A stretch of DNA of 64,000 nt from an uncultured Clostridium sp. (lineage in GTDB: Bacteria > Bacillota > Clostridia > TANB77 > CAG-508), in the NCBI GenBank assembly GCA_964389545.1, contig CAYMDN010000001.1, positions 39,592 to 103,591 on the forward strand, read 5' to 3'. The first letter of the stretch is position 1. Every line of letters begins with the position of its first letter. The notes under the pieces are model-generated. The model worked only from the letters and a program-made list of their open reading frames with translations. It did not search any database and had not been told where the DNA came from. This document shows, one piece after another, positions 2,134 through 53,086 of the stretch. A program made the translations under genes and the position numbers.

Positions 2134-2150
2134 CTTCCTTCAATTTGGTT

Positions 2151-3353: not shown

Positions 3354-3367
3354 AAAGGAAATAAATA

Positions 3368-3757: not shown

Positions 3758-3771
3758 AAAGGAAGGTCTAA

Positions 3772-4800: not shown

Positions 4801-4822
4801 ACTAATAACAAATTAGTAACAC

Positions 4823-4864
4823 AAAATCGCTACATTACCTATTTATAAGCAATGTAGCGATTTT
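4823..4864. terminator. Bidirectional hairpin terminator between int(+) and the 4863(-) gene; possibly also the prophage boundary
   Basis: 14-bp inverted repeat AAAATCGCTACATT / AATGTAGCGATTTT with a 14-nt loop. Confidence 0.5.
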
Positions 4865-5375
4865 ATGTGTGTATTATATCATAATTATTAAACATTTTTA
4901 ATATTCTTAAAAGTGCTGTTCTAAAAAATCTTGTATAAATATTTCCAAATTGCTTTTCATCACCAAATACCGACATATCTAAATTGCTTTCTATAATTCC
5001 TAAAATATTAAAATATATGCTTTCTCTTTTATATATATTATTTTGTAATAATATATCAATCCACTTATTTGCTATTTTATATTTAATATTTTCTCTATCA
5101 ATTTTTCCATAATGTATCTCTCCATTATTTTCTTTATGAAATCTACATTCTTCTGCACAATATCCAAATTTCTTCACATTTTCATTTAAACATCTAGCAT
5201 TATTTAATTCTACAAACAATTCATCTTTCTTATTTTTAGGAATAGCCATTATCATTATATAATCTATTATTTCTTCTTTTTTTCCATATCTATATACCCT
5301 ATTCTTTGATTCATCAACATATAAGTCTAGATGAATTTCTTTTACTGGTATATCATAAAATTTAATTAAATCCAT
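4863..5375 (-). CDS. hypothetical protein (170 aa)
   Basis: ORF only. Confidence 0.35.
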   Translation of the reverse strand: MDLIKFYDIPVKEIHLDLYVDESKNRVYRYGKKEEIIDYIMIMAIPKNKKDELFVELNNARCLNENVKKFGYCAEECRFHKENNGEIHYGKIDRENIKYKIANKWIDILLQNNIYKRESIYFNILGIIESNLDMSVFGDEKQFGNIYTRFFRTALLRILKMFNNYDIIHT

Positions 5376-5482
5376 AAAATCACCTTTTGTATAATATTTT
5401 TAATTTTTTAAAGCCTGTCTCTTGTTAAAAAAGCAAAATAATTTTGTAGGTTAAATTACATCATTAATTTGCTTTTCTTTTG

Positions 5483-6412: not shown

Positions 6413-6489
6413 TAATATTTTCTCCTTTATAACTTAAAAGAGAAATGAATTAATATATATCATTTCTCTTTTTATAAATTTAATATATA

Positions 6490-7485: not shown

Positions 7486-9487
7486 TAATATCGTTTGCTG
7501 ATATTGTATTTTCTTGTAAAATTTCTAACAATTCTATTTCGTTTAAGTCTTTATCTAATAACCCTAAATCTTTTTTTGTATTAAATATAACAAACTCTTT
7601 AATTGTTTTTTCGAAATCATTTTTATTAATTTTTTCAAATTCTACCTTTGAAAAAGCTTGAATTAGCCATTCATCTTTTTCCTTTATTTTGACATAGCAA
7701 TGTGTTATATCATTAACATTCTTTGGATTTCTATACCATGGTGCATCAATATCTTCTAGCATTTCTTTCTTTATACCATTCCATTTTTTATAAACGTCTC
7801 TTCTTCCTTTTTTCTTAGCTAATTCAAAACCATCTGATTTTAAATTATAAAAATCTACATATTTTGAATAATCATGTGGTCTATTTGTCTCAATAACTAT
7901 TATCGAACTTCCAGTTGAAGCATTAGGTTGAAATAGATCTTTTGGCATGTTGATTACAGCTTTTAATGTATTTTCTTTTAATAAATTATCTCTTATATCG
8001 CTTTCACTCATAAATGCTTGTGGTGGTGCAATCATTACTACATATCTAGAACATATTTTACACATTTTTTCTAAAAAGCTTATCTCTTTCATCCATGGTT
8101 TTTTATTTTTACTGTTAGAATTTTTATTACTTTTAAATTTCTTTAGTTCTTCATATGTTGTAAATGAACCAGAATATGGCGGATTGATGAATCCTATAGT
8201 TGGTTTTTCATCTAGTTCCTCTAATTTCTTCTTGAAATTCTTATCAAATTCAGGTGCGAAAAAATCATAATTAAGTATATTAGATTTTCCATCACCTCTG
8301 AACAACATATTAGAAATAGCTAAAATATACATATGGGATTTTAACTCATTTCCTATTAATTGTTTCTTTCTAACATTTTCTCTTCCTTTACTATCTGTTT
8401 GTAATTCTATAAGCTTATTCATTGCTGCTATTAGAAACGAACCTGTTCCACAGCATGAATCAAAAATCACATCATCCTTCTTTAAATCTACTAAATGTGT
8501 AAATAGTTCAGAAACATGTTCTGGAGTTAAAATAATTCCAGATTGAACATCTACAATTCCAGCATATCTTAAAAATTCTTGATAAAATTTTCCTATAATA
8601 TCATAATTGTTTCTAGTATCAAATAATGGTATTACATTGTTCTTCAATATTGTTAAAATTGTCTTTATTGTATCCGTTTCTAATAGATCTTTTTCATTTT
8701 CAAATGTATTAAATTCCCTCATGATCATTTCTATTTTTTCTTTTGGTAAATTTTCTCCATCTTCTCCCAATATATCAGGAACAACAATTCCTATTTGGCT
8801 CATTAATTGTTTTGGATTGTATCCCTCAAATTGTTCTCTAAAAAGATTTCTATTCTTCCCATTTTTTGACTCATATAATGAAATCAATAAAATACTTAAT
8901 AAAGTTGGTCTTTTATCTTCTTTTACTGAATACAGTAAATTATTAATTCTATTTGATGCCTGAGAAATTCTAGAAGAAATCTCTTCTAAGTTTAAATTTT
9001 CAAATAATGCCAAATAATCATCTTCATTATGAATTTCATTTATATTCATATCAACAATAGTATCTATCTTAATTCCATAAGTGTCTATTCTATATGAATA
9101 TTCTGCTGAAACATCTCCAGATACTGCTATTCCTAAAATATTCCATTTTTTCAATTCATTTAGTGCATTATTTACTTCTGTATCATATATTCCAAAAGAT
9201 TGAAGTGTTCCAGGCATAAAGCATGATAAATAATGTTTTGTCTGAGGGATAGCTTCTTTTTCATGTTGACCAATTGTAGATTTCAATTCAATCATTATTA
9301 ACAATCTTTTTTTATCATTAACATATATAAAATCAGGCAACCCAATATTTCCATTTTTATTTTTAGACGAATGATTTAAGATAGTATTTATATATTCGTT
9401 ATCTGTATTCTCTCTCCACTCATTAGAATATTGCAAATTCAATAAATATGAATGCAAAGATAAAAATGTTTTATCATTTCTTGGCAT
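7466..9487 (-). CDS. Fused restriction endonuclease-N6-adenine methyltransferase subunit (type IIB/BcgI-A-like)
   Basis: N-terminal PD-(D/E)xK-like PDFIYVNDKKRLLIMIELK. MTase motif I FDSCCGTGSFL and motif IV NPPY (GFINPPYSGS). Likely start MPRNDK at 9487 (RBS GGAGGG). Confidence 0.7.
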   Translation of the reverse strand: MPRNDKTFLSLHSYLLNLQYSNEWRENTDNEYINTILNHSSKNKNGNIGLPDFIYVNDKKRLLIMIELKSTIGQHEKEAIPQTKHYLSCFMPGTLQSFGIYDTEVNNALNELKKWNILGIAVSGDVSAEYSYRIDTYGIKIDTIVDMNINEIHNEDDYLALFENLNLEEISSRISQASNRINNLLYSVKEDKRPTLLSILLISLYESKNGKNRNLFREQFEGYNPKQLMSQIGIVVPDILGEDGENLPKEKIEMIMREFNTFENEKDLLETDTIKTILTILKNNVIPLFDTRNNYDIIGKFYQEFLRYAGIVDVQSGIILTPEHVSELFTHLVDLKKDDVIFDSCCGTGSFLIAAMNKLIELQTDSKGRENVRKKQLIGNELKSHMYILAISNMLFRGDGKSNILNYDFFAPEFDKNFKKKLEELDEKPTIGFINPPYSGSFTTYEELKKFKSNKNSNSKNKKPWMKEISFLEKMCKICSRYVVMIAPPQAFMSESDIRDNLLKENTLKAVINMPKDLFQPNASTGSSIIVIETNRPHDYSKYVDFYNLKSDGFELAKKKGRRDVYKKWNGIKKEMLEDIDAPWYRNPKNVNDITHCYVKIKEKDEWLIQAFSKVEFEKINKNDFEKTIKEFVIFNTKKDLGLLDKDLNEIELLEILQENTISANDIIGDEND

Positions 9488-9588
9488 AATTCCCTCCAAA
9501 ATATCATATTTTTTTATATTTTATCATATTAAGTATTTTTTTTGTATATTTTTTTATAATTTTTTATATTTTTTTGCAATTACATAGT

Positions 9589-9606
9589 AACAAACATTTG
9601 TTTGTT
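9589..9606. promoter_or_regulatory. Perfect palindrome AACAAACATTTGTTTGTT flanked by TTGCAAT direct repeats in the R-M promoter region
   Basis: Read directly. ~120 bp upstream of the R-M start in a 330-bp AT-rich leader. Confidence 0.4.
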
Positions 9607-9832
9607 TTGCAATAGTATTTATTAAATTTCTTTAAAATCTTTTCTACTTTTTTCGACAAAAAATCTATTTCTCAAAACATATAAATTTCAAGAAATAGAT
9701 TCAATTACTATCTTTCAAATTTTCTATCTTTCTTCTTTTGTTTTTCCTTTGATTTTTCTTCAGTTTCTCTTATTTGTTCCTTCATACTAGGAACATTATC
9801 TGTTACTTCATCACACATTCTAATTTCCTTTT

Positions 9833-10120
9833 TTACTTTTTTAGTTCAGTTGTAACCGCAATTATTTGCTTTGTAATCTCATTTTTCTCTACTTCATTGT
9901 CTACTTTGCCTCTTTTATAATATAATCTATTTCTAGCATTTAATATATCTTGCTTTTCTCTTAACTTCTTTGTTTTCAGCTCATCTACATTATCTATTGT
10001 TTCTAATTTATACTTACACAAAAATCTTATTTGCTCTGAGTAATAATCCATTTTTTCAATAACTTTTCTCATCTCTGATGTTAACTTATATTGAACATTA
10101 TTTCTTTTATGCAATCCCAA
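9833..10120 (-). CDS. hypothetical protein (95 aa)
   Basis: ORF only. Confidence 0.3.
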   Translation of the reverse strand: MGLHKRNNVQYKLTSEMRKVIEKMDYYSEQIRFLCKYKLETIDNVDELKTKKLREKQDILNARNRLYYKRGKVDNEVEKNEITKQIIAVTTELKK

Positions 10121-10282
10121 TAAAAATCTATAGTAATAATATAAAGCAACTATTCCCTTAGGTTTGTATGCCTTTTAAAAAACACTTTTTCTTCCATAGA
10201 ATTTAAAGCAGTTCTTTTATATGGAATTATTTTCTGTTTTGGAATAAAATCATTTGCTATAATTCTTTGTCTAATATTTTCT

Positions 10283-10312
10283 GTCAATCGGGACGGGGTT
10301 ATTCGACATACA
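10283..10312. repeat. Copy A of a ~30-40 bp direct repeat GG(G/A)ACG(G/T)GGTTATT(C/T)GACATACAAAATTAT
   Basis: 27/30 identity with copy B at 11037-11066. Similarity extends ~6 bp to the left (TCAATNGG). Confidence 0.6.
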
Positions 10313-10396
10313 AAATTATAAATTCCTTCATTAAAGAGATTGGCAAGTAAGTTCTTTCTTAAATTATATAAAAAATAGACTGTCATTTCTGACAAT

Positions 10397-10945
10397 CTAT
10401 TTTTGCTTTTCGTTATACTCTTTTATTATTTTTCTAAGTTTATTATTAAAATAAACTCTCGCACCATCATATTCTTCTTTATCAGGCTGCTTATATGTTC
10501 TATCACAGTTAGGACAATATAGTACAGTTTTATAACCAGCATCTTTAGGTAATATATTTCCTTTACATTCTACACATATTGGCGTAACATCTTTAATTTC
10601 TATTTGATTCCCTATTCTATTATATCTCCATTCATACAATAATCCATTATACATATCACTCGAGTAATTTTTATACCAACTTTCATCTTTATTATCCACT
10701 TCAGTTATTTTTAAATAGATTATAAGAATTATATATAAAACAAATATTGCAATAATAATTCCCCATATTGGTATAGAAAAAGTTAGTACATTACCTATAA
10801 ATTCAAATATCTTTTTCCATATAATAGTAAAAGCATTTTTAAAATCAACATTTTCAATTTTTGATACAATAATAGGACATATTATATTAGCAAGAATAAA
10901 AATTACAACTGCAATAATTTTCTCTTTATATTTTTTTATTTTCAT
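10397..10945 (-). CDS. membrane protein with C-terminal Zn-ribbon (182 aa)
   Basis: Two or three predicted TM helices, then CVECKGN...CPNCDRTY. Flanked by direct repeats A and B. Confidence 0.45.
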   Translation of the reverse strand: MKIKKYKEKIIAVVIFILANIICPIIVSKIENVDFKNAFTIIWKKIFEFIGNVLTFSIPIWGIIIAIFVLYIILIIYLKITEVDNKDESWYKNYSSDMYNGLLYEWRYNRIGNQIEIKDVTPICVECKGNILPKDAGYKTVLYCPNCDRTYKQPDKEEYDGARVYFNNKLRKIIKEYNEKQK

Positions 10946-11036
10946 TTATAATCCTCCGCCAACGATACTAATATCATTATTATAGTATATAGTTCCTTAT
11001 TTCACAACAAATTCACACTTTTCAATAAATTTCAAT

Positions 11037-11066
11037 AGGAACGTGGTTATTTGACATACAAAATTA
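11037..11066. repeat. Copy B of the direct repeat
   Basis: See copy A. Confidence 0.6.
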
Positions 11067-11107
11067 TTATTACTTCTAATATTTAATGTCATTTCTACCC
11101 GTCTCTA

Positions 11108-11136
11108 TTGACAACAAGTTCTAGTATTTATACAAT
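11108..11136 (+). promoter_or_regulatory. Sigma-A-like promoter TTGACA-N17-TACAAT for the three-gene operon
   Basis: Read directly. Overlaps the ORF-track TTG start of gene 1, so the true gene-1 start is uncertain. Confidence 0.45.
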
Positions 11137-11512
11137 ACTATATATTACATTATTTCAATTTGTAGAAGAAAACAATTGTATAATAAAAAAATGTAAGAAT
11201 TGTGGGAAATACTTTATAACAGATAATCCTAGAGTTAATTACTGTGATAATTTATTTAAAGGAACTCAGACTTGTAAAGATATTGGCAATCAAATTGCTC
11301 AAAGAATCAAACAAGAAAATGATAAAGTTTATGGTAAATATCGTAAAATGTATTCTAAAAAAGCTATGTTAGTTAAACGTAACCCTCATATTGATATTTA
11401 CAAAAAAGATTATGAAAATTGGAAAAAGCAAGCTAAAAAATTTATGGATAATATAAGAAATGATAAGAAAACTTATGAAGAATTTGATAAATGGTTAGAT
11501 AAAAACAAATAG
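11108..11512 (+). CDS. small Zn-ribbon protein (operon gene 1; start codon uncertain)
   Basis: CKNCGKYF...NYCDN...TQTCKD, four Cys. No in-frame ATG downstream of the promoter until late in the ORF. Start may be non-canonical or the promoter call is wrong. Confidence 0.4.
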   Translation: MTTSSSIYTILYITLFQFVEENNCIIKKCKNCGKYFITDNPRVNYCDNLFKGTQTCKDIGNQIAQRIKQENDKVYGKYRKMYSKKAMLVKRNPHIDIYKKDYENWKKQAKKFMDNIRNDKKTYEEFDKWLDKNK

Positions 11513-11521
11513 GAGGAAATA

Positions 11522-12400
11522 TTGATGAAAAAAACAGAAAAACAAAATATAAACAATTCAAATATTAAAAATCCAGTATTTGAAGCAATTTTGGAATATA
11601 TAGATGACTTTAATGTAAAATTTTCAGAAACAAAAGAAACTTTTAAAAAGGCTCGCTTGTCTACATCTGATAGAAAAGAAAAATGTGTTAAAGATTTCTT
11701 TTTAAGCATTTTACCTAATGGCTATTCCATCAAAAGAGGTGAAATTTTTGATTACACGTCTATTAGTAATTCTATAGATTGTGTTATTTTAACTCCAAAT
11801 CATCCTTCTTTAAAAACTCCTATGCGACCTGAAATAATAGTTGCAGAAGGTGTGTATGCAGCTATTGAAGTAAAACCTAATATTTCTACGTTAACAAAAA
11901 GAAGTGAATTATACAGGGGGTTAAAGCAGTCTGATTCAGTAAAAAAGCTAAATAGAAATTTATCACTACCTAATGTAGATAAAATAGATCCTCAGGGTCT
12001 CTATAAAAAAATACCTTTTATAATGTTTTCAAACAAATCAAAAGATGTAGAAGAAACTTTGAATTTTATTATAGAATGTGTTAATAGTGGCGATTTAACT
12101 AAAGAAAATTTACCTGATGTAATTTTTTCCTTAAATGGTTGGCTATTATATCATACTTGCAATATTCGAACATCCTTATTTGAACCTACATTTAGGTTAA
12201 AAGGAATTTCCGATGAGTGCAACAACGCATTTATGTTACTTAATGGTGAAAGCCAATATTTAATATGTATTTTAATATTATTACTATTTAAATTTGCTAC
12301 TCCTAATACGGTTATTGATGATTTTATCATAAAAGATTACATATTAAAATTATATAATGAAAATAAAATTCCTTTTTCAAGGGCAATTTGGTATGAATGA
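11522..12400 (+). CDS. PD-(D/E)xK-like nuclease-fold protein (operon gene 2)
   Basis: 292 aa. IDCVILTPN ... EGVYAAIEVKPN resembles a D...E-x-K restriction-endonuclease-like core. RBS AGGAGGAAATATTGATG, 10 nt after gene 1. Confidence 0.5.
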   Translation: MMKKTEKQNINNSNIKNPVFEAILEYIDDFNVKFSETKETFKKARLSTSDRKEKCVKDFFLSILPNGYSIKRGEIFDYTSISNSIDCVILTPNHPSLKTPMRPEIIVAEGVYAAIEVKPNISTLTKRSELYRGLKQSDSVKKLNRNLSLPNVDKIDPQGLYKKIPFIMFSNKSKDVEETLNFIIECVNSGDLTKENLPDVIFSLNGWLLYHTCNIRTSLFEPTFRLKGISDECNNAFMLLNGESQYLICILILLLFKFATPNTVIDDFIIKDYILKLYNENKIPFSRAIWYE

Positions 12401-12427
12401 AAGTTTATAATAACATGGAGGTAAAAA

Positions 12428-14254
12428 ATGTCTATATTAAATTTAAGTGTACAGGGAATTAGAAGTTTTAAGGATTTAACATCACTAAACTTTGCAATAC
12501 CCGATGGAACCACTAATGGTAGTGGCTTGAATATGCTGGTTGGGCCAAATAATAGTGGAAAATCAAGTCTTATTGAAACATTATACTTAGCAAATAATAA
12601 TTTAGAAATGATTCCAAGTTCTATAAGAAATTCTCAATCAACTAATGGTGTAAAAATCGAATTAAACTTCAATAATGGAAATACTAAAAAATTAATAAGC
12701 ATGCAAAACAATCTTGCATTTATAAATAATATATATGTAGATAGCAAAGGAGAAAAAATTCTTGATAATAGGCCTTTTGCTTATATCCTTTCTTCAAAAA
12801 GAAATATCGGTATTAATTTATCAACTCATTCATCAAGTTGGGAAAACTTTTTATATAATAACGGTGGTCATAACTATAGACAAGAAAATTTATCTAATAA
12901 TATAGGTGGTAGATTCAAAAATATAATTGAATCTAATAAAGAAATCTATGATTATGAATTAAAAAAAATTTTAGGGTATTTACCAAACTGGTCTTTAGAT
13001 TCAATTGATGCAAATAATTTGTTTATTTCATTTAAAGAAGGAACTACACAGCATAACAACTCAGGATCAGGTGATGGATTTATTAACTTATTTGTAATTT
13101 TGACATCACTGTACGATGCTCCTCCAAATTCAACTATAGTAATAGATGAACCAGAACTTGCTTTGCATCCTGATGTTCAACAAAGATTAATGGAGCGCTT
13201 AATATTCCATTCAAAAAATAAACAGATAATTATAAGCACACATTCTCCATACTTCATAGACTTGAATCTATTAAATTATGGTGCAAAATTATTTAGGTTT
13301 TATAAAGAAAATGAAAATACAACTATATATACAATTAAACCTGAACATATTTCTAGTATAAATCATCTATTAAATACCATTGAGCAACCATATCTTCAAG
13401 ATATTAAAAGTAAAGAAATTTTTTTCCTTGACAAACTAATATTAGTTGAAGGACCAGATGATATATATGGTTATCAGTCTTTATTTAAAAAATTCAATTA
13501 TAAAACTTCTGGCAACTTTTATGGTTGGGGTGTTGGTGGTGCTGATAGAATTGAACATTTACTATCTATACTTCATGATTTACATTATAAAAAAATAGTT
13601 ATACTTCTAGATAATGATAAAACAGAATTAGGTACAAATTTATCTACTTTATATCCAGATTATAAAGTAATCGTTATTGACGCTAAAGATATTAGAGATA
13701 AGGAAGCACCTAATATAAAGGAAATAAAAAAGCTTATTTCTACAATGAAATGTAATATATCTAGCGAGCTAGGAAGTATTTTAGACTCATTTTTATCAAA
13801 TTATATTACAGAAAGTAAAGTAAAGGGCATTATTAAAGATAGAAAAACTATGTCTATAAACTCTGAATATGAAGATAATATTAAAAATGTCATTTTACAA
13901 GTTCAACAGTATTTCAATGATACTAGTATCAAAAGTGATGAAGAAATTTATAAATTAATTAATTCTACATCAAACGAAACAATAGCAAAGAAAATATTAG
14001 ACGATTTTATTACACAACATCCTGAAAAAACATCAAGATATATTGAAAGTAAATACTTAGATTTTAACTTTATATCTGGTGGAGGAGAATATGAATTAAT
14101 TAATTCAGAAAACAACGTATATTATTTTGAGATGTATCAGGAAGCTACCACTGAAGAGAATAAAACTGTAAATGTAAAAATTAATATTTCAATAGATATA
14201 GAGAATAAAAAAGTTTCAAATATTATTTATACAGAACTAAAAAACACTTTATAA
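12428..14254 (+). CDS. OLD-family endonuclease: N-terminal ABC ATPase + C-terminal Toprim
   Basis: Walker A LVGPNNSGKSSLIE, Walker B STIVIDEPELALHPD, H-loop ISTHSPYF. Toprim LILVEGPDDIYG and IVILLDNDK (E...DxD). RBS GGAGGTAAAAAATG. Confidence 0.8.
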   Translation: MSILNLSVQGIRSFKDLTSLNFAIPDGTTNGSGLNMLVGPNNSGKSSLIETLYLANNNLEMIPSSIRNSQSTNGVKIELNFNNGNTKKLISMQNNLAFINNIYVDSKGEKILDNRPFAYILSSKRNIGINLSTHSSSWENFLYNNGGHNYRQENLSNNIGGRFKNIIESNKEIYDYELKKILGYLPNWSLDSIDANNLFISFKEGTTQHNNSGSGDGFINLFVILTSLYDAPPNSTIVIDEPELALHPDVQQRLMERLIFHSKNKQIIISTHSPYFIDLNLLNYGAKLFRFYKENENTTIYTIKPEHISSINHLLNTIEQPYLQDIKSKEIFFLDKLILVEGPDDIYGYQSLFKKFNYKTSGNFYGWGVGGADRIEHLLSILHDLHYKKIVILLDNDKTELGTNLSTLYPDYKVIVIDAKDIRDKEAPNIKEIKKLISTMKCNISSELGSILDSFLSNYITESKVKGIIKDRKTMSINSEYEDNIKNVILQVQQYFNDTSIKSDEEIYKLINSTSNETIAKKILDDFITQHPEKTSRYIESKYLDFNFISGGGEYELINSENNVYYFEMYQEATTEENKTVNVKINISIDIENKKVSNIIYTELKNTL

Positions 14255-14462
14255 TTCATAATATACTCCCACACATATGTATGCCTGAAAAGAGTAAAAA
14301 AGGCAATGTTTGGGAGTATTAAAAACAGTAGAAAAAATGATAGTTATGGGTTAGTTTGTATCGCTGGATACTATTTTTACAAAATATCTATTATGAAAAT
14401 TAAAAACGTACTTGAAAATAAAACTCTTCTCTATTTATCTTGTAAATTTTTTTAAATTCACT

Positions 14463-15596
14463 TTACTCCTTCTCGCCCTCATACCCATATTCCGACCACC
14501 TAAGCAATCTAAAAAAAGCAAAAGTTAATTTCCTATCTTTTATGTTTATAATCTCTTTAATTTGCATCATTACATCCGATATATACTGTAAATTATCCTT
14601 CACATTTATTAAAATTTCCTCTTTAGTGTCAAAAACTTTATCTTGATGAATATAATGAAAATTATTTCTCAATTTTCTATTATTCTCACAATCTACATTC
14701 CTAAAAAGAAATAAAATTGTTTCTAACTCTTTCTTTATTGCTATATCCTGAGTACTATTAATATAACTTTGTATATTATCATAAGTTTCATCTAAAACAT
14801 ATGCCACCATTTTGCTAAAAAAATATATAATATAACTATTTTTAATCTCCTCATCATTTAAGTCAATCATATCTTTAAAAATTATATCTATCGTTGATAG
14901 TTGAGAATATGCAATCAAAAGTCTTTTAAGTAGTTTATCTTGTTTTATTTTAGATTTTCTTATCAAACTTACAAATGAATATGGTTGTTCTATAATTTTA
15001 GCTGGGGATGTCTCTATTTTCTTCAGAATATAATCATCATCCTCTAATCCTTCTTCTACTAGTTTATCATGTATTGTCCTAAAAAAACTCATAAGTACAT
15101 TTGTATATTGCTGATAGGTCACACCTTCTTCGAAATTATTTTGAGTTACATATTGTTCCCATATGTTCGTTCCTATAAATTTTTTATTCTTATCTTCCTT
15201 CATAAAATATAGTATAAAGTCTAGCATAGGCTTTTGTTCATCTATTGAAATTCCCATATTTTCAGTCATAATGATATCTCTATCATTAAAATTTTTTCTT
15301 TTAAATTGATGTACTGCATGTCTTAAATTTCTATTTATTTCAGAATAATCAGCCGTATCTATCTTCATATTTTCACATTTCATAATCTCATATACTATAA
15401 AGTTCATTATTACCGTTATTAGTGTAGTAGTATGCTGATTTAACCTTCTCTGCTTGTTCTCAAGCATATACTCATTATAGAAATCTAATATTTTGGTTAT
15501 TGAATATATATCTATAAACATTGCATTCCAACTATCAACAGTTTTATTGTCTATAAAACAATTGAATATATCTTCTATCTTCATTATTTTCTCCAC
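14463..15596 (-). CDS. hypothetical alpha-helical protein (377 aa), possibly Abi-like
   Basis: ORF only, no recognisable motif. Sits beside defense genes. Confidence 0.4.
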   Translation of the reverse strand: MEKIMKIEDIFNCFIDNKTVDSWNAMFIDIYSITKILDFYNEYMLENKQRRLNQHTTTLITVIMNFIVYEIMKCENMKIDTADYSEINRNLRHAVHQFKRKNFNDRDIIMTENMGISIDEQKPMLDFILYFMKEDKNKKFIGTNIWEQYVTQNNFEEGVTYQQYTNVLMSFFRTIHDKLVEEGLEDDDYILKKIETSPAKIIEQPYSFVSLIRKSKIKQDKLLKRLLIAYSQLSTIDIIFKDMIDLNDEEIKNSYIIYFFSKMVAYVLDETYDNIQSYINSTQDIAIKKELETILFLFRNVDCENNRKLRNNFHYIHQDKVFDTKEEILINVKDNLQYISDVMMQIKEIINIKDRKLTFAFFRLLRWSEYGYEGEKE

Positions 15597-15967
15597 AACC
15601 CATGTAAATTACAATACGCGTACACTGCTTCTACTTCATCACTTTCGCACAATGCAAATGTTGCTTTTGGTTCGTCTCCTGCTTTTAGTGTTTTTCTTTG
15701 ATTTCCAGTCTTTGTTTGAATTGAAATCCATTCTATATAATGTTCTTCTGTCATTGGATGTGCCACTTCTCCAACTGTTACAACAACATTGTTTCCTTCT
15801 TTAACATATACCGGTACATGCTTTTCTACAGCACCATCTGATTCTCCTGGAATTAATTCTTGCATTTCTTCTCCACAGCATTTTATTTTGCAGTTTTCAT
15901 CTCCACATTCTTTTACTAGTCCTACCATTGCTCCACATTTCTTACATTTTAAAAATTTTTGTTTCAT
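15584..15967 (-). CDS. dfx: Desulfoferrodoxin / superoxide reductase
   Basis: N-terminal desulforedoxin-like CKKCGAMV...CCGEEM, C-terminal HVPV...H...CNLHGLW. Start probably MKQKFLKCKKCG, not the longer ORF-track start. Confidence 0.8.
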   Translation of the reverse strand: MKQKFLKCKKCGAMVGLVKECGDENCKIKCCGEEMQELIPGESDGAVEKHVPVYVKEGNNVVVTVGEVAHPMTEEHYIEWISIQTKTGNQRKTLKAGDEPKATFALCESDEVEAVYAYCNLHGLWRK

Positions 15968-39088: not shown

Positions 39089-42000
39089 ATGCAAAAAAAT
39101 TTTTATGAGTTAACCAATCCTCAGAAATCAATTTGGTACACAGAAGAAGCATTTAAAGGTACACCTATTGCTAATATTACCGCTACTGTAATTATCCCTC
39201 AAGAGGTTAATTTTAAATTATTAGAAAGAGCGATAAATGTCTTTATCGAAAAAACTGATGGTTACCGCTTAAAACCTTTTATAAAAAATGATAAAGTATA
39301 TCAATATGTTGAAAATTATTCTAATGTTCCTATTGAGACTATTAGTATAAATTCTGATGAGGATTTACAAAAAAGAGCAAAAAAAATTGCACTTACACCT
39401 TTTGATACATTAGGTTCTTCTTTATATGAATTTACATTAGTTAAATATTCAGATTGTCATGGTGGTTTCATAGTTAGATTACACCATTTAATTTCTGACG
39501 CTTGGAGTGGTGTTTTTAATGCATCTGAAATTATAAAAATTTATTCTTCTTTACTAAAACAAGAAGATATTTCGACTATTCAATATCCTTCTTACCTTGA
39601 ATACATACAGTCAGAACAGGAATATGTTCAAAGTGAAAAATTTAATAAGGATAAAACTTATTGGAATTCATTATTCGAAAAAGTTCCAGAAATCGCTACT
39701 ATTCCTAGCAGCAGTAACTTTTCTGAAAATAGTTCTATAGGAGCTTCTATTAGAAAACAATTTACAATTGATACTAATTGTGTCGATAAAATAAACACAT
39801 TTTGCAAAGCTAACAAAATTTCTGTCTTCAATTTTTTCATGGCGATTTTTTCTGTTTATCTTTCAAGAGTTTCCTCACTAGATGAAATAGTTATTGGAAC
39901 ACCTATTTTAAATCGTACCAATGTTAAAGAAAAGCATACTTCAGGAATGTTTATCAATACCATTCCTATAAAAATATCTTTAAAGGAAAATATGGCTTTT
40001 ACTACATTAGCTTCATCTATTTCAGGTGATTTATTTACCATGTTTAAACATCAGAAATATTCTTATTTATCCCTTTTAGAAGATTTAAGACGTTCAAATA
40101 ATTCGATAACAAATTTATATGATGTTTTCATATCATATCAAAATGTTCGTAGTTCTTCTAATACATCTGATGTTCCTTTTGATATTCAATGGGTTCATAA
40201 CGATTATACATCTGATAGCCTTGATATTCACATCTTTGATATGAACGATGCTGGAAGCTTTAATATTGCATATGATTATCAAACTATCAAATATTCTGAA
40301 ACTGACATTGCAAATATTCATGAGAGAATTTTGCATATGATAGATCAAGTTTTATCAACTGATAGCATATTAATTGATGATTTAGGAATAATCACATCTG
40401 AAGAAAAGCAAAAAATCTTAGTTGATTTTAATAAAAATACTTTAGAATATGATTCATCAAAAAGTATTAAGCAACTTTTTGAAGAACAGGTTGATGAAAA
40501 TTCAAATAATACTGCTGTTATATATAAAGATGATTCTTTATCTTATAAGGAATTAAATGTAAAATCAAATATACTATCTCATTACCTAATTAAACAGGGG
40601 ATAAAAAAAGGAGATATTATACCTGTATTATTAGATCGCTCTATAGACTTAATAATATCTATGATTGCAATAATAAAAACTGGAGCAGTTTATTTGCCAA
40701 TTTCAAACGACTGTCCTTCTGAAAGAATTAATTATATTTTAGAAGATAGTAAAGCAAAATTAGTAATAACTTCCTCTAATAATAATTTAATTGACTCAGA
40801 TAGTATTTCTACTTTGCTATTAGATACATTTAATTACTCGAATAATTCTACTAAAAACACCGATGTAGAAATTTCTCCAAATGATATTCTATACATTATC
40901 TATACTTCTGGCTCAACAGGAAATCCTAAAGGAGTTCGTATATGCAATCAAAATCTAAATAATTTTGTTAACAATTTTCAAAATTATTTTGGTGGAATTA
41001 GTCCGTCAGACAATTGTTTAGCTTCTACTAATATAGGTTTTGATGTTAGTATTTTCGAATTTTTCACAACACTTCTAAGTGGTGCAACCTTGCATTTATA
41101 TGAAGAAAATACTATTACAGATATATTTAAATATTGTGATGATATCGTTAAACACAATATAACACTTTTATATATTCCTCCAAATATTTTGGAAGAAGTA
41201 TATAAAATCTTATCTACATATGATAATGTACCTATAAAAAAAATGTTAATTGGTGTTGAACCTATTTCTAGTAAGATAATTAAAAAGTATTATAAACTTA
41301 ATAAAGATATGACGATAGTAAACGCTTATGGTCCTACAGAAACTACTATTTGTTCTACTGCTGTTGTTTTGAATAATGATTTATTAAATAATTATTCTAT
41401 AATACCAATTGGCTCACCATTGGCAAATTTAAAATTATATGTCTTAGACAAACATTTAAAACCTGTTCCAATTTCTATGCCTGGCGAATTATATATTGCT
41501 GGTGATAATGTTGGAAAAGGATATTTAAACAATAAAGAACTAACCGAAAATAGTTTTATAAAATTACCTAATGATATATGTAAAAAAACTGCATATAAAA
41601 CAGGCGATTTAGTTAAATGGAATGACGACGGAACCCTAAGTTTTATATCTAGAATAGATAATCAAGTAAAAATTAATGGGCACAGGATTGAACTAGGAGA
41701 AATTGAAAATTGTATATGTAGATATCCTAATATTGAAAAATGTATAGTCTTAGTAAATGATAAACAAAAAATTATTGCTTACTTCTCTTCAGCTGTAAAT
41801 ATTAATATATCTGACTTACGTGTGTTTCTTCAAAGAAAGTTACCTTCATACTTTATTCCTAATAATTTTGTCCAGGTAGCAAAGTTTAAGTTAACTGCTA
41901 ACGGAAAGATTGACAAAAAGGCTCTTTCTAAAGTAAAGTTAGAGCAATCTGTATATGAAGCACCAAAAACAGATTTTCAAATTCAATTAGCAAAACTATT

Positions 42001-43426
42001 TGAAAATGTTTTGGGATATCCCAAAATAAGTATTAATGATAATTTCTTTGAAATTGGAGGAGATTCATTATCAGCAATCAAATTACAAATTGAGGCTTTT
42101 AATAGTAATATCAACATTTCATATAAAGATATTTTCGCATATCCAACTATTAAATTATTAGCTAAACACATCTCTCAAGGAGACATCCCTTCAAACGATA
42201 ATAATACTATTGAAATTTATGATTATACAAAAATAAATAAACTTATTGCAAAAAACAAGGAGCCTAATAAGCCTAAACTAAAAAAAGAAAAATTAAAGAA
42301 CATTCTTCTCACTGGAGTTACAGGATACATGGGAAGTCATGTTTTGGATAATTTATTAAAACATACTAGAAGTAACATTTATTGTTTGGTCAGAGCTAAG
42401 AACCATACTGATTCGCAAACTAGATTAACAGATGTTTTACGATTCTATTTTGGAAATAAATACGATGATTTAATTTTTAAAAGAATTTTTGTTATAGAAG
42501 GCGATATTACTAGACCAAAGCTTGGTTTAAATGACCTATATTATGAACAAATTGGCAAAAGTATCTCTTGTGTAATTAATTGTGCTGCTATTGTTAAACA
42601 TTATGGTAATTCAGATATATTTAATAGCATCAATATAAAAGGAACAAAGAATATCGTTGATTTTTGTTCGAAATTTAATTGTAAATTAATGCATTTATCT
42701 ACATTAAGCGTTTCTGGAAATATGTTAGGTGAAGGTAACTCAAACGCTGATGCCCTTAAAGTTTTTACTGAGAAAAACTTGTATATTAGTCAAGATTTAT
42801 CAAACGTATATATAAATACTAAATTTATGGCCGAAAGATTAATTCTTGAAAATATTATAGAAAAAAATTTAAATGCTAAAATTATACGTTTAGGAAATAT
42901 TACAAATAGATATTCTGATGGAGCTTTCCAGATAAACGTTTCAGAAAATGCATTTTTAAATAAGCTTCATTCTTTTTTAGAAATTGGTTGTATACCAGAA
43001 AAGTTAAAAGACTTAGAAGTTGATTTTGCACCAGTTGATTTATGCGCATCAGCAATTGTTAATTTAACATTTTATGAAAATCCTTTTACAATTTTTCATG
43101 TTTCTCACAACAATCATATTTCTTTTGAAAAGTTAGTAAAAATATTTAATCTTTTAGATGTTAATTTAGAATTTGTTGATGAAGAAACATTTAGCAGAAA
43201 AGTAAAAAATCTATTAAAAAATCCAGAAACTAAAAACATTATTTCTGGTATTATAAATGATTTTGATAAGGACAAACACATAGATTATTCATCTAATATC
43301 AAAATTGATACAACTTTTACTACTAAATATCTAAAAAGGCTTTCTTTTAAATGGCCTAAAATTAATGAAAAATATATTCGTAAATATGTTTTATATTTAA
43401 AATCTATTGGTTATATTAATCAATAA
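39089..43426 (+). CDS. Single-module NRPS: condensation - adenylation - thiolation - thioester reductase (C-A-T-R)
   Basis: HHLISDAWSG (C), YTSGSTGNPKGV (A3), FDVS (A4), NAYGPTETT (A5), GELYIAGDNVGKGYLN (A7), YKTGDLVKW (A8), FFEIGGDSLSAIKL (PCP Ser), LLTGVTGYMGSHVL (NAD(P)-binding reductase). Confidence 0.85.
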   Translation: MQKNFYELTNPQKSIWYTEEAFKGTPIANITATVIIPQEVNFKLLERAINVFIEKTDGYRLKPFIKNDKVYQYVENYSNVPIETISINSDEDLQKRAKKIALTPFDTLGSSLYEFTLVKYSDCHGGFIVRLHHLISDAWSGVFNASEIIKIYSSLLKQEDISTIQYPSYLEYIQSEQEYVQSEKFNKDKTYWNSLFEKVPEIATIPSSSNFSENSSIGASIRKQFTIDTNCVDKINTFCKANKISVFNFFMAIFSVYLSRVSSLDEIVIGTPILNRTNVKEKHTSGMFINTIPIKISLKENMAFTTLASSISGDLFTMFKHQKYSYLSLLEDLRRSNNSITNLYDVFISYQNVRSSSNTSDVPFDIQWVHNDYTSDSLDIHIFDMNDAGSFNIAYDYQTIKYSETDIANIHERILHMIDQVLSTDSILIDDLGIITSEEKQKILVDFNKNTLEYDSSKSIKQLFEEQVDENSNNTAVIYKDDSLSYKELNVKSNILSHYLIKQGIKKGDIIPVLLDRSIDLIISMIAIIKTGAVYLPISNDCPSERINYILEDSKAKLVITSSNNNLIDSDSISTLLLDTFNYSNNSTKNTDVEISPNDILYIIYTSGSTGNPKGVRICNQNLNNFVNNFQNYFGGISPSDNCLASTNIGFDVSIFEFFTTLLSGATLHLYEENTITDIFKYCDDIVKHNITLLYIPPNILEEVYKILSTYDNVPIKKMLIGVEPISSKIIKKYYKLNKDMTIVNAYGPTETTICSTAVVLNNDLLNNYSIIPIGSPLANLKLYVLDKHLKPVPISMPGELYIAGDNVGKGYLNNKELTENSFIKLPNDICKKTAYKTGDLVKWNDDGTLSFISRIDNQVKINGHRIELGEIENCICRYPNIEKCIVLVNDKQKIIAYFSSAVNINISDLRVFLQRKLPSYFIPNNFVQVAKFKLTANGKIDKKALSKVKLEQSVYEAPKTDFQIQLAKLFENVLGYPKISINDNFFEIGGDSLSAIKLQIEAFNSNINISYKDIFAYPTIKLLAKHISQGDIPSNDNNTIEIYDYTKINKLIAKNKEPNKPKLKKEKLKNILLTGVTGYMGSHVLDNLLKHTRSNIYCLVRAKNHTDSQTRLTDVLRFYFGNKYDDLIFKRIFVIEGDITRPKLGLNDLYYEQIGKSISCVINCAAIVKHYGNSDIFNSINIKGTKNIVDFCSKFNCKLMHLSTLSVSGNMLGEGNSNADALKVFTEKNLYISQDLSNVYINTKFMAERLILENIIEKNLNAKIIRLGNITNRYSDGAFQINVSENAFLNKLHSFLEIGCIPEKLKDLEVDFAPVDLCASAIVNLTFYENPFTIFHVSHNNHISFEKLVKIFNLLDVNLEFVDEETFSRKVKNLLKNPETKNIISGIINDFDKDKHIDYSSNIKIDTTFTTKYLKRLSFKWPKINEKYIRKYVLYLKSIGYINQ

Positions 43427-43437
43427 TGGAGGTAATT

Positions 43438-45264
43438 ATGCTTGTAGATACATTTATACTTGTTGGATTAATTATATCGGTTTTATTAATACTCTTATTG
43501 TTTTTATTTGTTAGGAGACAACAACGACAGCCAAAAGTAAAAAAGCCCTTTATGTGCATTCTTTTATGCTTATTCATTTGTTCTTCTGGGCTTATTTTAC
43601 AAATTTTATTAACAAATAAATTACATGTTAATCCAATTTATTTTGAATATTTTGTTTATATTGGTACAGTTTTTTTGCCAGTTTCCTTCTTCGTCATGAT
43701 TTTAAACTTTACCAGACCCAATAATACAGTTAATATAAAATCTTTAATTGTTAAACTTTCTATAATACCTGTATTTTGCTTATTAACTTTATGGACTAAT
43801 GATTTTCACCATTTATTTTATAGTAAATATTCGCTAATACTATCTCAAGGAGAATATGGTCCATTTTTCTATTTAACTTCAGGTTATACATACTTATTAC
43901 TTGGAATAGTATTAATTTTACTTATTACATATAGTATTAAAAACATTAGATTTTATTTTATGCAAGCACTATTTATTTTTATCGGAATTTTAGTTCCTGT
44001 TACCGTTAATTTACTTGGTGTTTTTGGTGCTATAGATATGTATATTTATATGACACCTATGTACTTTACTGTTACACTATTATGTTTTGCTATATCTATA
44101 TTCAAATTTGGATTTATGAAAGTTTCTCCTGTTACTTTGAAAAATATAGTAAACAGAATTTCAGATGCCTATATTGTATTAAATGGCAACTTAGATATAT
44201 CTGATTGTAATGAGACTTTATTACATATGTTTAATATTGATAATATTGATTCCATTATCAACAAAAATTTATTTAATATAAATGGCACATTTTCTGATTT
44301 TAATAATATATCAAATAAAATAACTGTTGCAGCAAAAGAAACTCAAAATAGCCATGATACAATAGTTATAGAAGAATATTTTAAAGGAATTGAAAAGTAT
44401 TTTCACATTGAAATTAATGGAATAATTGAAAAAAATTCATTCCTTGGTACTTTAGTTCTTTTAAAAGATATAACTCAACACAAAATAGATATGCAAACTA
44501 TTCGCGATAATCAAGATATTCTTGTTGAAAAAGAGCGTTTAGCTTCTCTTGGTCAGATGATTGGAGGTATTGCTCACAATTTAAAAACACCTATAATGTC
44601 AATCTCTGGTGCTACTCAAGGTTTAACTGATTTAATAAATGAGTATTCAAGTTCTGTGGGAGATTCAGAAGTTACAAATGAAGATCATTTAGAAATAGCA
44701 AATGATATGAGAACTTGGATAGAGAAAATCCAAACACATTTATCTTATATGTCTGATGTAATAACTACAGTAAAAGGACAAGCTGTTACTTTCTCTGATA
44801 ACGCTTCATTTACTTCTTTTACTATCGAAGATTTAATAAGACAAGTAAATATATTAATGAAACACGAATTAAACAATGCTTTAGTTACACTTGAGGAAAA
44901 TGTCAAGGTCAATAAAGAAACCGTGGTAAAAGGTAATATTAACAGCTTAGTGCAAGTTATTAATAATATGATTTCAAATGCAATTCAAGCATATGACGGA
45001 AAAACTGAAGAAAAAATTATTCTTTCTATTTACAAAGATGATATTTCTCATTTACTTATAAGTGTTCAAGATTTTGCAGGTGGATTGCCTGATAATGTAA
45101 AAAATAGACTATTTAAAGAAATGATAACAACAAAAGGGAAAAATGGTACTGGACTTGGATTATTCATGTCCTACTCAAATATTAAAGCTCACTTTGATGG
45201 CGATATAGTTTTTGAAACAGAAAAAGGAAAAGGTACAACATTCTATATAGAAATACCAATATAA
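43438..45264 (+). CDS. Orphan sensor histidine kinase with N-terminal 7TM domain
   Basis: Seven hydrophobic helices, H-box IAHNLKTPIMSI, G-boxes GTGLGLF. No response regulator adjacent. Translationally coupled to the NRPS. Confidence 0.8.
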   Translation: MLVDTFILVGLIISVLLILLLFLFVRRQQRQPKVKKPFMCILLCLFICSSGLILQILLTNKLHVNPIYFEYFVYIGTVFLPVSFFVMILNFTRPNNTVNIKSLIVKLSIIPVFCLLTLWTNDFHHLFYSKYSLILSQGEYGPFFYLTSGYTYLLLGIVLILLITYSIKNIRFYFMQALFIFIGILVPVTVNLLGVFGAIDMYIYMTPMYFTVTLLCFAISIFKFGFMKVSPVTLKNIVNRISDAYIVLNGNLDISDCNETLLHMFNIDNIDSIINKNLFNINGTFSDFNNISNKITVAAKETQNSHDTIVIEEYFKGIEKYFHIEINGIIEKNSFLGTLVLLKDITQHKIDMQTIRDNQDILVEKERLASLGQMIGGIAHNLKTPIMSISGATQGLTDLINEYSSSVGDSEVTNEDHLEIANDMRTWIEKIQTHLSYMSDVITTVKGQAVTFSDNASFTSFTIEDLIRQVNILMKHELNNALVTLEENVKVNKETVVKGNINSLVQVINNMISNAIQAYDGKTEEKIILSIYKDDISHLLISVQDFAGGLPDNVKNRLFKEMITTKGKNGTGLGLFMSYSNIKAHFDGDIVFETEKGKGTTFYIEIPI

Positions 45265-45302
45265 AAAAACAAACCTCTCAGTTAACTGAGAGGTTTTATT
45301 TT

Positions 45303-46478: not shown

Positions 46479-46724
46479 TTATTTAGATACTTCATTTTTT
46501 ACTTTTTGAATTTGATTTTGGTCTGCAGGACCTGCGGGTGTGTAGTATCCTTTTAATTGAGCTACTTTAAATAGTTCATATTGAAAGGCTTCGTCACTGT
46601 TTCTTATTTGTTGTACAGTTTGTCTCAATTGTACATTTTCCGCTTCTGATATTACACCTTGATATGTTGTAAGTGTAGCCTTAGTACCTTCTAATATGTC
46701 ATTTACCATATACTTTTCTTCCAT
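46479..46724 (-). CDS. CotF-like spore coat protein (C-terminal-type, 81 aa)
   Basis: Family resemblance only. Confidence 0.4.
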   Translation of the reverse strand: MEEKYMVNDILEGTKATLTTYQGVISEAENVQLRQTVQQIRNSDEAFQYELFKVAQLKGYYTPAGPADQNQIQKVKNEVSK

Positions 46725-46733: not shown

Positions 46734-46919
46734 CTAATTTAAAAATGTTAATAATTTTTGTTTTGTATTTAAAGATTCTTGAGCTGCTTTTGTAAAAATT
46801 TGTTTAATTTGTGGATCAACACATTGTGTAGCATAATTATTTAATTTTTGGTAAGATGTGTCTTGTGCGCCTATTAAATGACGTAAGTTTTGTAATTCTA
46901 CTTGTGTTAAATTTGCCAT
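46734..46919 (-). CDS. CotF-like spore coat protein (Coat_F domain, 61 aa)
   Basis: LTQVELQNLRHLIGAQDTSYQKLNNYATQCVDPQIKQIF pattern. Confidence 0.45.
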   Translation of the reverse strand: MANLTQVELQNLRHLIGAQDTSYQKLNNYATQCVDPQIKQIFTKAAQESLNTKQKLLTFLN

Positions 46920-51895: not shown

Positions 51896-53086
51896 ATGAA
51901 TGATGACGAATTTGTAAATAATTTTAAACCATCTCCAGAGACTGGAACTCCACGACCAAGACGTAATAATAGCTTTTCAATAATTTTTGCAGCATTGCTT
52001 GTATCTGTAATTGGCTCTTTAATAGTTTGTGCGTGTTTTCGTAGTCTTACAAAATCAGATGGAGATACGGATACAGTTGAGGTTGTAACAAGTACTCCTC
52101 AAACTAACAGTCCAAATTTAACTCAAGTTTCTTTGGAACAATATTCTGATACTGCAATTTACGCAGCCAATAAAGTTTTACCTTCTATCGTAAGTGTATA
52201 CGTAGAATATGAAATTAGTTATTACGGCAGAACTCAAACAAGCCAAGCCCAAGGATCTGGAGTAATAATTAGTAAAGATGGATATATTCTTACTAACAAC
52301 CACGTAATTAGCTCAGGTGATTCTTCAGCTTTTTATGAAGTTTCAGAAGCAAATTCTGTAAAGATAAAATTGTATCAAGATGATAAAGAATATGATGCAA
52401 AAATTATTGGTTCGGATGCCAAAACAGATTTAGCTGTTTTGAAAATTGAAAAAGATGATTTAGTTGCAGCGGAATTAGGTGATTCTTCTTCTGTTAAAGT
52501 TGGAGAATTTGTTTTAGCTGTTGGTAATCCATATGGATTAGAACATTCAGTTACATCAGGTATTATAAGTGCTTTAAATAGAGAAATGACTGTAGATTCT
52601 TCTGAATATACTGTAATTCAAGCAGATTGTGCTATAAACTCTGGTAATAGTGGTGGTGCTTTTGTTAACAGCAAAGGTCAAGTTATTGGAATAGCTACAT
52701 TAAAACTATCTGGCACAGGAATTGAAGGTGTAAGTTTTGCAATACCTATTAATGATACTGAACCAATTTATAAAGAACTAATTGAAAATGGAAAAATAAT
52801 AAGACCATTTATAGGAATTCAAGGTATTGATGTTGATACACAAACGGCTGTAAGAAATCATTTAACAGAAGGAATTTATATTGATAGCTTTGTTAAAGGA
52901 AGTCCTGCAGCAGATTCTGATTTGAAAGTTGGAGATGTAATTGTTTCAATTGATGGTAAAGAAATTAAAACAATGGATGAATTAAATGAATACAAAAATA
53001 CAAAAGAAGTTGGAGATGAAATCACCTTAGGAATTTATAGAGATTCTAAAAAAATGGAAGTAAAAATTATATTAGGTGAAGAATAA
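51896..53086 (+). CDS. HtrA-family serine protease with PDZ (second copy)
   Basis: TNNHVI, DLAVLKI, GNSGGAF. Terminator at 53093-53125. Confidence 0.8.
   Translation: MNDDEFVNNFKPSPETGTPRPRRNNSFSIIFAALLVSVIGSLIVCACFRSLTKSDGDTDTVEVVTSTPQTNSPNLTQVSLEQYSDTAIYAANKVLPSIVSVYVEYEISYYGRTQTSQAQGSGVIISKDGYILTNNHVISSGDSSAFYEVSEANSVKIKLYQDDKEYDAKIIGSDAKTDLAVLKIEKDDLVAAELGDSSSVKVGEFVLAVGNPYGLEHSVTSGIISALNREMTVDSSEYTVIQADCAINSGNSGGAFVNSKGQVIGIATLKLSGTGIEGVSFAIPINDTEPIYKELIENGKIIRPFIGIQGIDVDTQTAVRNHLTEGIYIDSFVKGSPAADSDLKVGDVIVSIDGKEIKTMDELNEYKNTKEVGDEITLGIYRDSKKMEVKIILGEE

Follow-up and report, generated by a model that had tools for sequence, protein, structure and literature searches.

The 64-kb window analysed here, the whole stretch examined of contig CAYMDN010000001.1 from an uncultured Clostridium sp., carries two adjacent genes which encode a single-module nonribosomal peptide synthetase (NRPS) and a sensor histidine kinase with seven transmembrane (7TM) helices. 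Dozens of uncultured gut Clostridia have kept the two genes side by side. The reading that we tentatively favour is that the two genes form the local, regulator-less version of a conserved signalling module, consisting of an NRPS, a sensor kinase and, in many related loci, a response regulator in which a receiver (REC) domain is joined to an HD-GYP domain. The NRPS would acylate an activated hydrophobic amino acid, probably methionine, and set it free by reduction, which would yield an N-acyl amino aldehyde or alcohol. The co-expressed 7TM domain would detect this lipophilic molecule, or something derived from it, within the membrane; the kinase would then phosphorylate a REC-HD-GYP regulator whose gene lies elsewhere in the genome, and the regulator would change the levels of cyclic di-GMP (c-di-GMP).

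Linkage of the NRPS, the kinase and the regulator

Related loci were collected by scanning a genome collection with the NRPS as the query. The scan gave 31 loci, all from metagenome-assembled genomes (MAGs) of uncultured gut Clostridia; labels such as L001 and L020 denote related loci from other genomes that were compared with the window. Kinase adjacency was counted on the 29 NRPS-seeded loci with any downstream flank, and in every one of them the next gene downstream of the NRPS gene is a kinase orthologue. The NRPS gene was likewise found directly upstream of the kinase gene in 4/4 kinase-seeded contexts, and sampling seeded with the regulator or with a prevalent two-module NRPS showed the same layout. 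Linkage of the two genes is far beyond chance.

An earlier note on this DNA had described the kinase as an orphan without a response regulator. This is correct for the window, where neither a custom REC hidden Markov model run on six-frame open reading frames (ORFs) nor Pfam run on every ORF of at least 120 amino acids (aa) detected a receiver domain anywhere, and where tblastn with the REC-HD-GYP regulators of the relatives returned noise only. The orphan state is, however, local, because in 19 of the 31 related loci a REC-HD-GYP gene accompanies the orthologous kinase gene at a distance of up to about 5 kb, either directly after it, convergent with it or a few kb off behind inserted genes. 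The note had named a response regulator just outside the inspected region as evidence against its own proposal; the regulators of these loci come near to that case, but in relatives and not in this window. The regulator has about 355 aa with the Pfam domains Response_reg and HD_5/HD, the motifs HDIGK and HHERYDGxGYP, and the DDE...D...T...K residues. Its best NCBIfam match is a response-regulator c-di-GMP phosphodiesterase model, and we predict this activity for it.

The L020 locus is the most telling one for the coherence of the three genes. Its GC content is 43.7%, compared with 24–30% in all other loci, and its NRPS–kinase–regulator trio sits between pstCAB-phoU and gdh, unlike the low-GC loci with their HtrA...Tex/ABC-F neighbourhood. 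Since the context is unrelated, the three genes travel as a unit and do not merely reflect inherited synteny. The dimerization and histidine phosphotransfer (DHp) helix sets the partner specificity of a kinase. In the kinases studied here this helix (ERLASLGQxIGGIAHNLKTPIMSIxGAxEG) is near-invariant across orthologues with and without an adjacent REC-HD-GYP regulator, which suggests that the partner of the window kinase would still be of this kind, with its gene outside the window.

The sensor kinase and its divergence

The earlier assignment of the downstream gene to a 7TM histidine kinase was borne out by Pfam (HisKA_7TM, a weak PAS, HisKA and HATPase_c; PAS_9 has been assigned to many of the orthologues), by the intact H-box (HNLKTP), N, G1 and G2 boxes and by seven hydrophobic segments with short loops between them. 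The AlphaFold model of the full protein shows seven transmembrane (TM) helices, a PAS fold, a DHp hairpin and a catalytic ATP-binding (CA) domain, with a predicted local distance difference test (pLDDT) value of 76.8; the 7TM domain modelled alone reached a pLDDT of 84.9 and a predicted template modelling score of 0.83. In Foldseek searches the cytoplasmic part matched PAS-histidine-kinase structures. The 7TM domain showed only generic seven-helix similarity to G-protein-coupled receptor-like or PAQR-like folds in the PDB (TM-scores 0.5–0.67, E at least 1e-3). An invariant motif, WTNDxHHLFYxxYS, lies in its predicted outer loop between TM4 and TM5 (nucleotides 43792–43812 onward).

Mean identity across the kinase orthologues was 0.71 for DHp, 0.60 for CA, 0.49 for 7TM and 0.45 for PAS, the last two being the fastest-evolving parts. 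Five loci (L009, L012, L023, L024 and L031) have the 7TM-PAS sensor replaced by a sensor with two TM helices, an extracellular domain and HAMP, yet their DHp/CA core is retained, and the HD-GYP regulator and the neighbouring NRPS are still present. These five share a different adenylation-domain code, DIFQxAGxFK. A change of sensor with NRPS type would be expected if the sensor reads the NRPS product, but the pattern is effectively one evolutionary event. Suggestive only is a regression of sensor/NRPS co-variation, not phylogeny-aware, in which membership of the same adenylation-code class added 5 identity points, a value that 0 of 2000 label permutations reached.

Domain organization of the NRPS and its predicted product

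The NRPS was confirmed as a stand-alone enzyme with condensation (C), adenylation (A), thiolation (T) and thioester reductase (R) domains. The four Pfam domains follow each other on one polypeptide: Condensation at aa 3–444 (264 bits), AMP-binding at 464–813 (258 bits) with its C-terminal subdomain at 871–940, PP-binding at 967–1028 (33.7 bits) and NAD_binding_4 at 1074–1323 (163.9 bits). A protein 100% identical to it is present in public data. The catalytic motifs HHLISDA, YIIYTSGSTGNPKG, NAYGPTE, YKTGD, RIDNQVKINGHRIELGE, GGDSL, GVTGYMG and YINTK are intact, so that all classes of NRPS core motif are kept (HHxxxD; A3, A5, A7, A8 and the A10 Lys; GGxS; GxxGxxG; YxxxK). Inspection for inactivating changes in the A and peptidyl carrier protein (PCP) residues found the A core motifs and the GGDSL serine unaltered. 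The R domain scored 190 bits with the TIGR01746 thioester-reductase model, under its 213-bit cut-off, and the best NCBIfam matches of the NRPS, both also sub-cut-off, were AusA (to its C-terminal C-A-T-R half) and MxcG (full length).

Hundreds of C-A-T-C-A-T-R proteins in MAGs of gut Clostridia are strongly homologous to this protein. The family contains members of about 1445 aa (C-A-T-R) and about 2480 aa (C-A-T-C-A-T-R), the latter being the majority. The C-A-T part of the window enzyme is ~72% identical to module 1 of some two-module relatives, and its A-T-R part is ~56–67% identical to module 2 of others. Judged by these identities, the enzyme is a single-module mosaic of a mostly two-module family. 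Its C domain is 40–74% identical to the N-terminal C1 of the relatives but shares only about 23% identity with the internal elongation domain C2, which identifies it as an orthologue of C1 by sequence. The C1 motif HHxxxDA(W), with Ala replacing the usual Gly, is kept in 26/26 orthologues, whereas C2 has the canonical HHIISDG. The domain is the first one in the protein, with no carrier domain upstream. The earlier description of it as a starter-type domain thus holds for its position and its likeness to C1 and not to C2, but the formal subtype is ambiguous by sequence, since PDB matches found with phmmer to TycC PCP-C (LCL type; E = 2e-23) and to RzmA-Cs (starter type; E = 8e-21 to 2e-19) are comparable.

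Motif-anchored alignment gave the ten-residue A-domain code DVFYLGAICK, which is common to the closest relatives and to the terminal modules of L016, L017 and L021; many two-module relatives have DVWYLGGICK as the terminal code. DVWYLGGICK and DVFYLGGVCK are listed as methionine-incorporating in a published survey of A-domain codes, the supplement of which does not give the source cluster (PMC12283262). The window code agrees with each of them at 8/10 positions. Stand-alone proteins with AMP-binding and AMP-binding_C_3 domains (571–578 aa, fatty-acyl-AMP-ligase-like) adjoin the NRPS in four relatives and may supply the acyl starter unit. Because the C1 catalytic motif is conserved and such neighbours occur in these four relatives, the N-acyl amino aldehyde or alcohol of the earlier note is a reasonable product on domain and motif grounds, with the qualification that the starter subtype is ambiguous. 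We predict N-acyl-methioninal, or the corresponding alcohol in case the R domain carries out a four-electron reduction; the aldehyde as the end point of the R domain, the acyl chain and the substrate are all deduced from sequence features. The connection to the published peptide-aldehyde family of gut Clostridia, with its characterised clusters bgc33–bgc52 and rup, is likewise drawn from homology to the about 2480-aa C-A-T-C-A-T-R proteins.

Operon structure and the kinase start codon

The features of the locus are listed in Table 1. The promoter, the NRPS gene, the kinase gene and the terminator constitute a two-gene operon. No terminator was found between the two genes. The −35 and extended −10 elements are invariant in the aligned NRPS upstream regions of 7 species. 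An insertion of ~84 nucleotides between the promoter and the ribosome-binding site (about 38990–39075) lengthens the 5′ leader of the NRPS gene in the window; six relatives are without it. Rfam matched no family in the whole window and so provided no known riboswitch or leader for this long 5′ region.

The earlier note had proposed translational coupling through an overlap of the NRPS stop and the kinase start. The sequence TAATG is indeed present at 43424–43428, but its ATG at 43426 has no Shine-Dalgarno (SD) sequence and is probably not the functional start. An in-frame ATG at 43438, 12 bases past the overlap ATG and 11 nucleotides after the NRPS stop, is preceded by GGAGG. Orthologous kinases begin at the equivalent of this codon (MLxxxF), an independent gene call on an identical public contig gives 608 aa from it, and the gap between the NRPS stop and the kinase ATG in 28 loci runs from −8 to 70 nucleotides (median about 14), usually with a GGAGG-like SD sequence. 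The orthologue N-termini, the gene call and the gap/SD pattern all favour 43438, which is the most likely start of the kinase; strict overlap of the two genes is unlikely and coupling by this route is not upheld.

Table 1 Features of the NRPS–kinase operon, of the rest of the window and of related loci (positions are those of the window unless a locus is named)
Feature	Position	Strand	Evidence or remarks
σA-type promoter	38942–38971	+	TTGATT −35, 18-nucleotide spacer, extended −10 TGATATACT; consensus scan
Single-module NRPS, C-A-T-R, 1445 aa	39089–43426	+	Pfam domains, intact motifs
N-terminal C domain (C1/starter position)	39095–40420	+	HHLISDA at 39482–39502
A domain	40478–41908	+	Code DVFYLGAICK; core motifs A1–A10 present
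T (PCP) domain	41987–42172	+	Pfam PP-binding; GGDSL, phosphopantetheinyl serine is aa 993
R domain	42308–43057	+	GVTGYMG NAD(P)H site; YINTK catalytic Tyr/Lys; Pfam NAD_binding_4
GGAGG SD sequence of the kinase gene	43428–43432	+	Just past the NRPS stop codon (43424–43426); sequence
Sensor histidine kinase, 7TM-PAS-DHp-CA, 608 aa, corrected start	43438–45264	+	Pfam; start evidence; AlphaFold
HisKA_7TM sensor domain	43441–44109	+	Seven TM helices, short loops; Pfam 130.6 bits; hydropathy
PAS-like domain	44167–44469	+	Weak Pfam PAS, E = 0.006; PAS fold in model
DHp and CA domains	44512–45258	+	His380 in HNLKTP; motifs
Bidirectional intrinsic terminator	45271–45296		11-bp stem, T-runs on both strands; shared end of the operon and of the convergent M23 peptidase gene
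HtrA/DegP-type serine protease (trypsin + PDZ)	37790–38887	−	Divergent from NRPS; Pfam, NCBIfam HtrA
CotF-domain (spore coat protein F) ORF	46479–46724	−	Just beyond M23 peptidase gene
CotF-domain (spore coat protein F) ORF	46734–46919	−	Just beyond M23 peptidase gene
Large serine recombinase in 7-kb block	Resolvase 31761–32240; Recombinase + Zn-ribbon 30920–31864	Opposite to M14	Apparently frameshifted
Tyrosine integrase	3772–4800		Putative island 1–14300
Type I restriction-modification S and M subunits	6490–9499		Putative island 1–14300; no R subunit seen
OLD-family AAA_21/TOPRIM nuclease	12428–14254		Putative island 1–14300
Fatty-acyl-AMP-ligase-like gene	L005 5021–6736	−	Beside NRPS
Fatty-acyl-AMP-ligase-like gene	L009 9461–11188	+	Beside NRPS
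Fatty-acyl-AMP-ligase-like gene	L014 431–2158	−	Beside NRPS
Fatty-acyl-AMP-ligase-like gene	L023 7984–9720	−	Beside NRPS
TraG/VirD4-type gene downstream of kinase	L002, L003, L006, L015, L016, L021, L022, L033, L039–L041	Opposite	

Neighbouring genes and other features of the window

The HtrA gene lies upstream of the NRPS gene in most low-GC loci. It was set aside as a member of the module, as it is absent from L020 and L029, the two most divergent loci. A serine protease beside an aldehyde-making NRPS could point to self-protection or to a target relationship. A paralogous HtrA/DegP-type gene is present at 51896–53086 (+). In several loci the kinase gene is directly followed, on the opposite strand, by a TraG/VirD4-type coupling-protein gene and two or three small genes, and in several this block separates the kinase from the HD-GYP regulator. 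The TraG/VirD4-type gene is 82–83% identical between species whose NRPSs are only ~40% identical, which is odd for a remnant of a mobile element. L026 has two tandem kinase copies after the NRPS (12137–15821), both apparently frameshifted in the assembly.

The arrangement of the two CotF genes is also found in the 80%-identical relative L036, and these genes hint that this low-GC lineage forms spores. Farther upstream, an M14 zinc-carboxypeptidase gene is apparently split into 28821–29201 (+), covering positions 44–109 of the Pfam profile, and 36186–36644 (+), covering positions 128–263. Between the pieces lies a ~7-kb opposite-strand block (29248–36017) with the serine recombinase, an NS_2 endonuclease, DUF3006, an HTH_17 protein and others. 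The block looks like an integrated element that interrupts the M14 gene and is reminiscent of intervening elements excised during sporulation; a search for att-site repeats flanking the insertion found none. Judged by its gene content, the region 1–14300 looks like a mobile or defence island, which besides the genes in Table 1 has Cro/C1 HTH genes, DUF4268, DUF6076 and DUF6602.

Discussion

The favoured reading, a signalling module whose regulator is encoded apart from the window operon, brings together the invariant NRPS–kinase adjacency, the trio in L020 and the conserved DHp helix. Perception of the NRPS product by the kinase is inferred, and in the models seven TM helices with short loops would fit intramembrane sensing of a lipophilic ligand. 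By analogy, the logic would resemble that of RpfF/RpfC/RpfG or CqsA/CqsS and not that of a Spo0A orphan kinase or of a transcriptional cluster regulator. HD-GYP is not a DNA-binding domain, and the system would therefore not be a classical cluster-situated transcription regulator.

Several observations weigh against this reading. The identity of the product is a prediction from an 8/10 code match, and its binding by the kinase is likewise predicted. Pfam found no phosphopantetheinyl transferase domain among the window ORFs, and there is no acyl-activating gene in the window. The REC-HD-GYP gene is missing from the 64 kb, its presence in this genome being assumed, and none lies within 8–10 kb downstream in the closest relatives (L001–L004, L011, L015, L036 and L039–L041). 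In several loci the regulator gene has a convergent orientation or is set apart from the kinase gene by inserted genes. The regulator is also 81–87% identical across more than 120 clusters and stands next to the housekeeping genes Tex and ABC-F, so that part of the adjacency may be plain synteny. The regression for co-variation of sensor and NRPS ignores phylogeny, and WTNDxHHLFY, the most conserved sensor motif, is constant across NRPS types.

A broader claim, possible but less secure, is that the reductase-terminated NRPSs of gut Clostridia are primarily autoinducer synthases, read by the co-transcribed 7TM kinase that drives the REC-HD-GYP phosphodiesterase. The signals would then be acyl-amino or dipeptide aldehydes, or heterocycles derived from them, and the window would hold a streamlined single-module version.

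The strongest rival, which we consider rather unlikely, assigns independent functions to the two proteins: a secreted aldehyde would, as has been suggested for the published gut family, inhibit proteases of the host or of competitors, and the kinase would sense an unrelated envelope or environmental cue and merely be co-expressed, for example so that production is tied to a c-di-GMP-controlled lifestyle switch. The homology of the NRPS to the C-A-T-C-A-T-R family, the products of which are dipeptide aldehydes with protease-inhibitor activity according to reviews (PMC12327764), speaks for this explanation, as do the constancy of the best-conserved sensor motif across NRPS types and the divergent HtrA serine-protease gene as a conserved neighbour. 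It leaves unexplained, however, why the kinase is kept right after the NRPS (gap about 14 nucleotides) in every locus, the distant L020 included, and why loci with a different type of NRPS have exchanged the sensor domain.

The earlier note had favoured an orphan sporulation kinase that phosphorylates Spo0A directly; a kinase that phosphorylates or dephosphorylates this regulator now seems improbable, and nothing that was tested gives direct support to Spo0A as the target. The window is indeed without a response regulator, the 7TM-PAS-HisKA-HATPase architecture also occurs in CAC0323, CAC0903, CPR1316 and CPR1954 (PMC11210211), and the CotF genes 1.2 kb downstream hint at a spore-former; this shared architecture and the nearby CotF genes keep Spo0A among the conceivable targets. 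According to the same review, however, domain architecture does not predict a role in Spo0A phosphorylation (PMC11210211). None of the sequences covered by the analysis showed a spo0A gene. Comparison with the PDB and NCBIfam revealed AtoS-, FixL- and ThkA-like affinities, with an AtoS-like best family match and a KinB match confined to the ATPase domain, and thus no specific affinity to sporulation kinases, and the kinases near the REC-HD-GYP genes in the 19 loci have a DHp helix near-identical to that of the window kinase. Least probable of all is autoregulation of the NRPS operon by the kinase through an unlinked DNA-binding response regulator: the kinase is co-transcribed with a biosynthetic gene, a MarR-family gene lies upstream (36680–37138) and an OmpR-type two-component pair lies near the L041 locus, but the neighbourhood of the pair contains no conserved DNA-binding response regulator, and the output of the only recurrently linked regulator is enzymatic (HD-GYP).

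The genes for reductase-terminated NRPSs of gut Clostridia rank with the most prevalent biosynthetic genes of the human microbiome. How they serve the producer is unsettled, inhibition of host cathepsins being the leading idea. The tight linkage of the NRPS to a sensor kinase, and mostly also to a c-di-GMP phosphodiesterase regulator, offers a testable alternative, in which the products would be self-signals. As the likely receptor and output proteins can be named, the question can be addressed in vitro in spite of the organisms being uncultured, and the single-module enzyme predicts a simple, synthesisable class of product. Should the broader autoinducer claim hold, abundant uncultured gut bacteria would possess an NRPS-based quorum-sensing circuit, not described before, that controls c-di-GMP and by this route perhaps also sporulation or surface behaviour.

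Comparison with known systems

The NRPS family of gut Clostridia makes dipeptide aldehydes and pyrazinones (Guo et al. 2017 Cell; ruminopeptin/rup, Schneider and Balskus 2018; as summarised in PMC12327764). The window enzyme has C1, A, T and R domains homologous to those of this family, the same terminal reductase release and a host of the same group. In contrast to the mostly two-module family members, it has one module, and its predicted product is an acylated single amino aldehyde and not a dipeptide, which therefore could not cyclise to a pyrazinone. To our knowledge, published descriptions of this family do not include its conserved linkage to a 7TM kinase and an HD-GYP regulator, and literature searches on HisKA_7TM, on NRPS with HD-GYP and on C-A-T-R found nothing relevant. 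Among other NRPSs, MxcG (myxochelin) has the same C-A-T-R single-module layout and AusA (aureusimine) has a C-A-T-R end with aldehyde release. The window protein scores far under the equivalog cut-offs of both (566 versus 2300 for MxcG and 755 versus 2500 for AusA). MxcG differs further in taking aryl groups from a separate carrier protein and in loading Lys, and neither enzyme is linked to a sensor kinase.

CAC0323, CAC0903, CPR1316 and CPR1954 are orphan kinases of clostridial sporulation (PMC11210211). The window kinase is likened to them by architecture, not by sequence; it shares their domain order and the lack of an adjacent regulator gene and is similar to them in size (they have about 620–790 aa). 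Its own orthologues, in contrast, usually have an adjacent HD-GYP-type regulator, and none of the sporulation kinases has been reported next to an NRPS.

In the RpfF/RpfC/RpfG system of Xanthomonas, which uses the diffusible signal factor (DSF), and in the CqsA/CqsS system of Vibrio, which uses CAI-1 (Lqs in Legionella), the gene for the synthase of a lipophilic signal lies beside that of a polytopic sensor kinase, and the Rpf output is a REC + HD-GYP c-di-GMP phosphodiesterase. The window operon has the same adjacency of a synthase gene and a polytopic membrane kinase gene, and the regulator beside the kinase in the 19 related loci has the Rpf-type REC + HD-GYP architecture. Unlike these systems, the window module is predicted from its genes and has no adjacent regulator, its synthase is an NRPS instead of a crotonase or an aminotransferase-like enzyme, and its kinase, from a Firmicute host, is non-hybrid (no REC or HPt) with a HisKA_7TM + PAS sensor. 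The NRPS family is thus already known, whereas the single-module mosaic and the conserved linkage to signalling genes are, as far as we can tell, described here for the first time.

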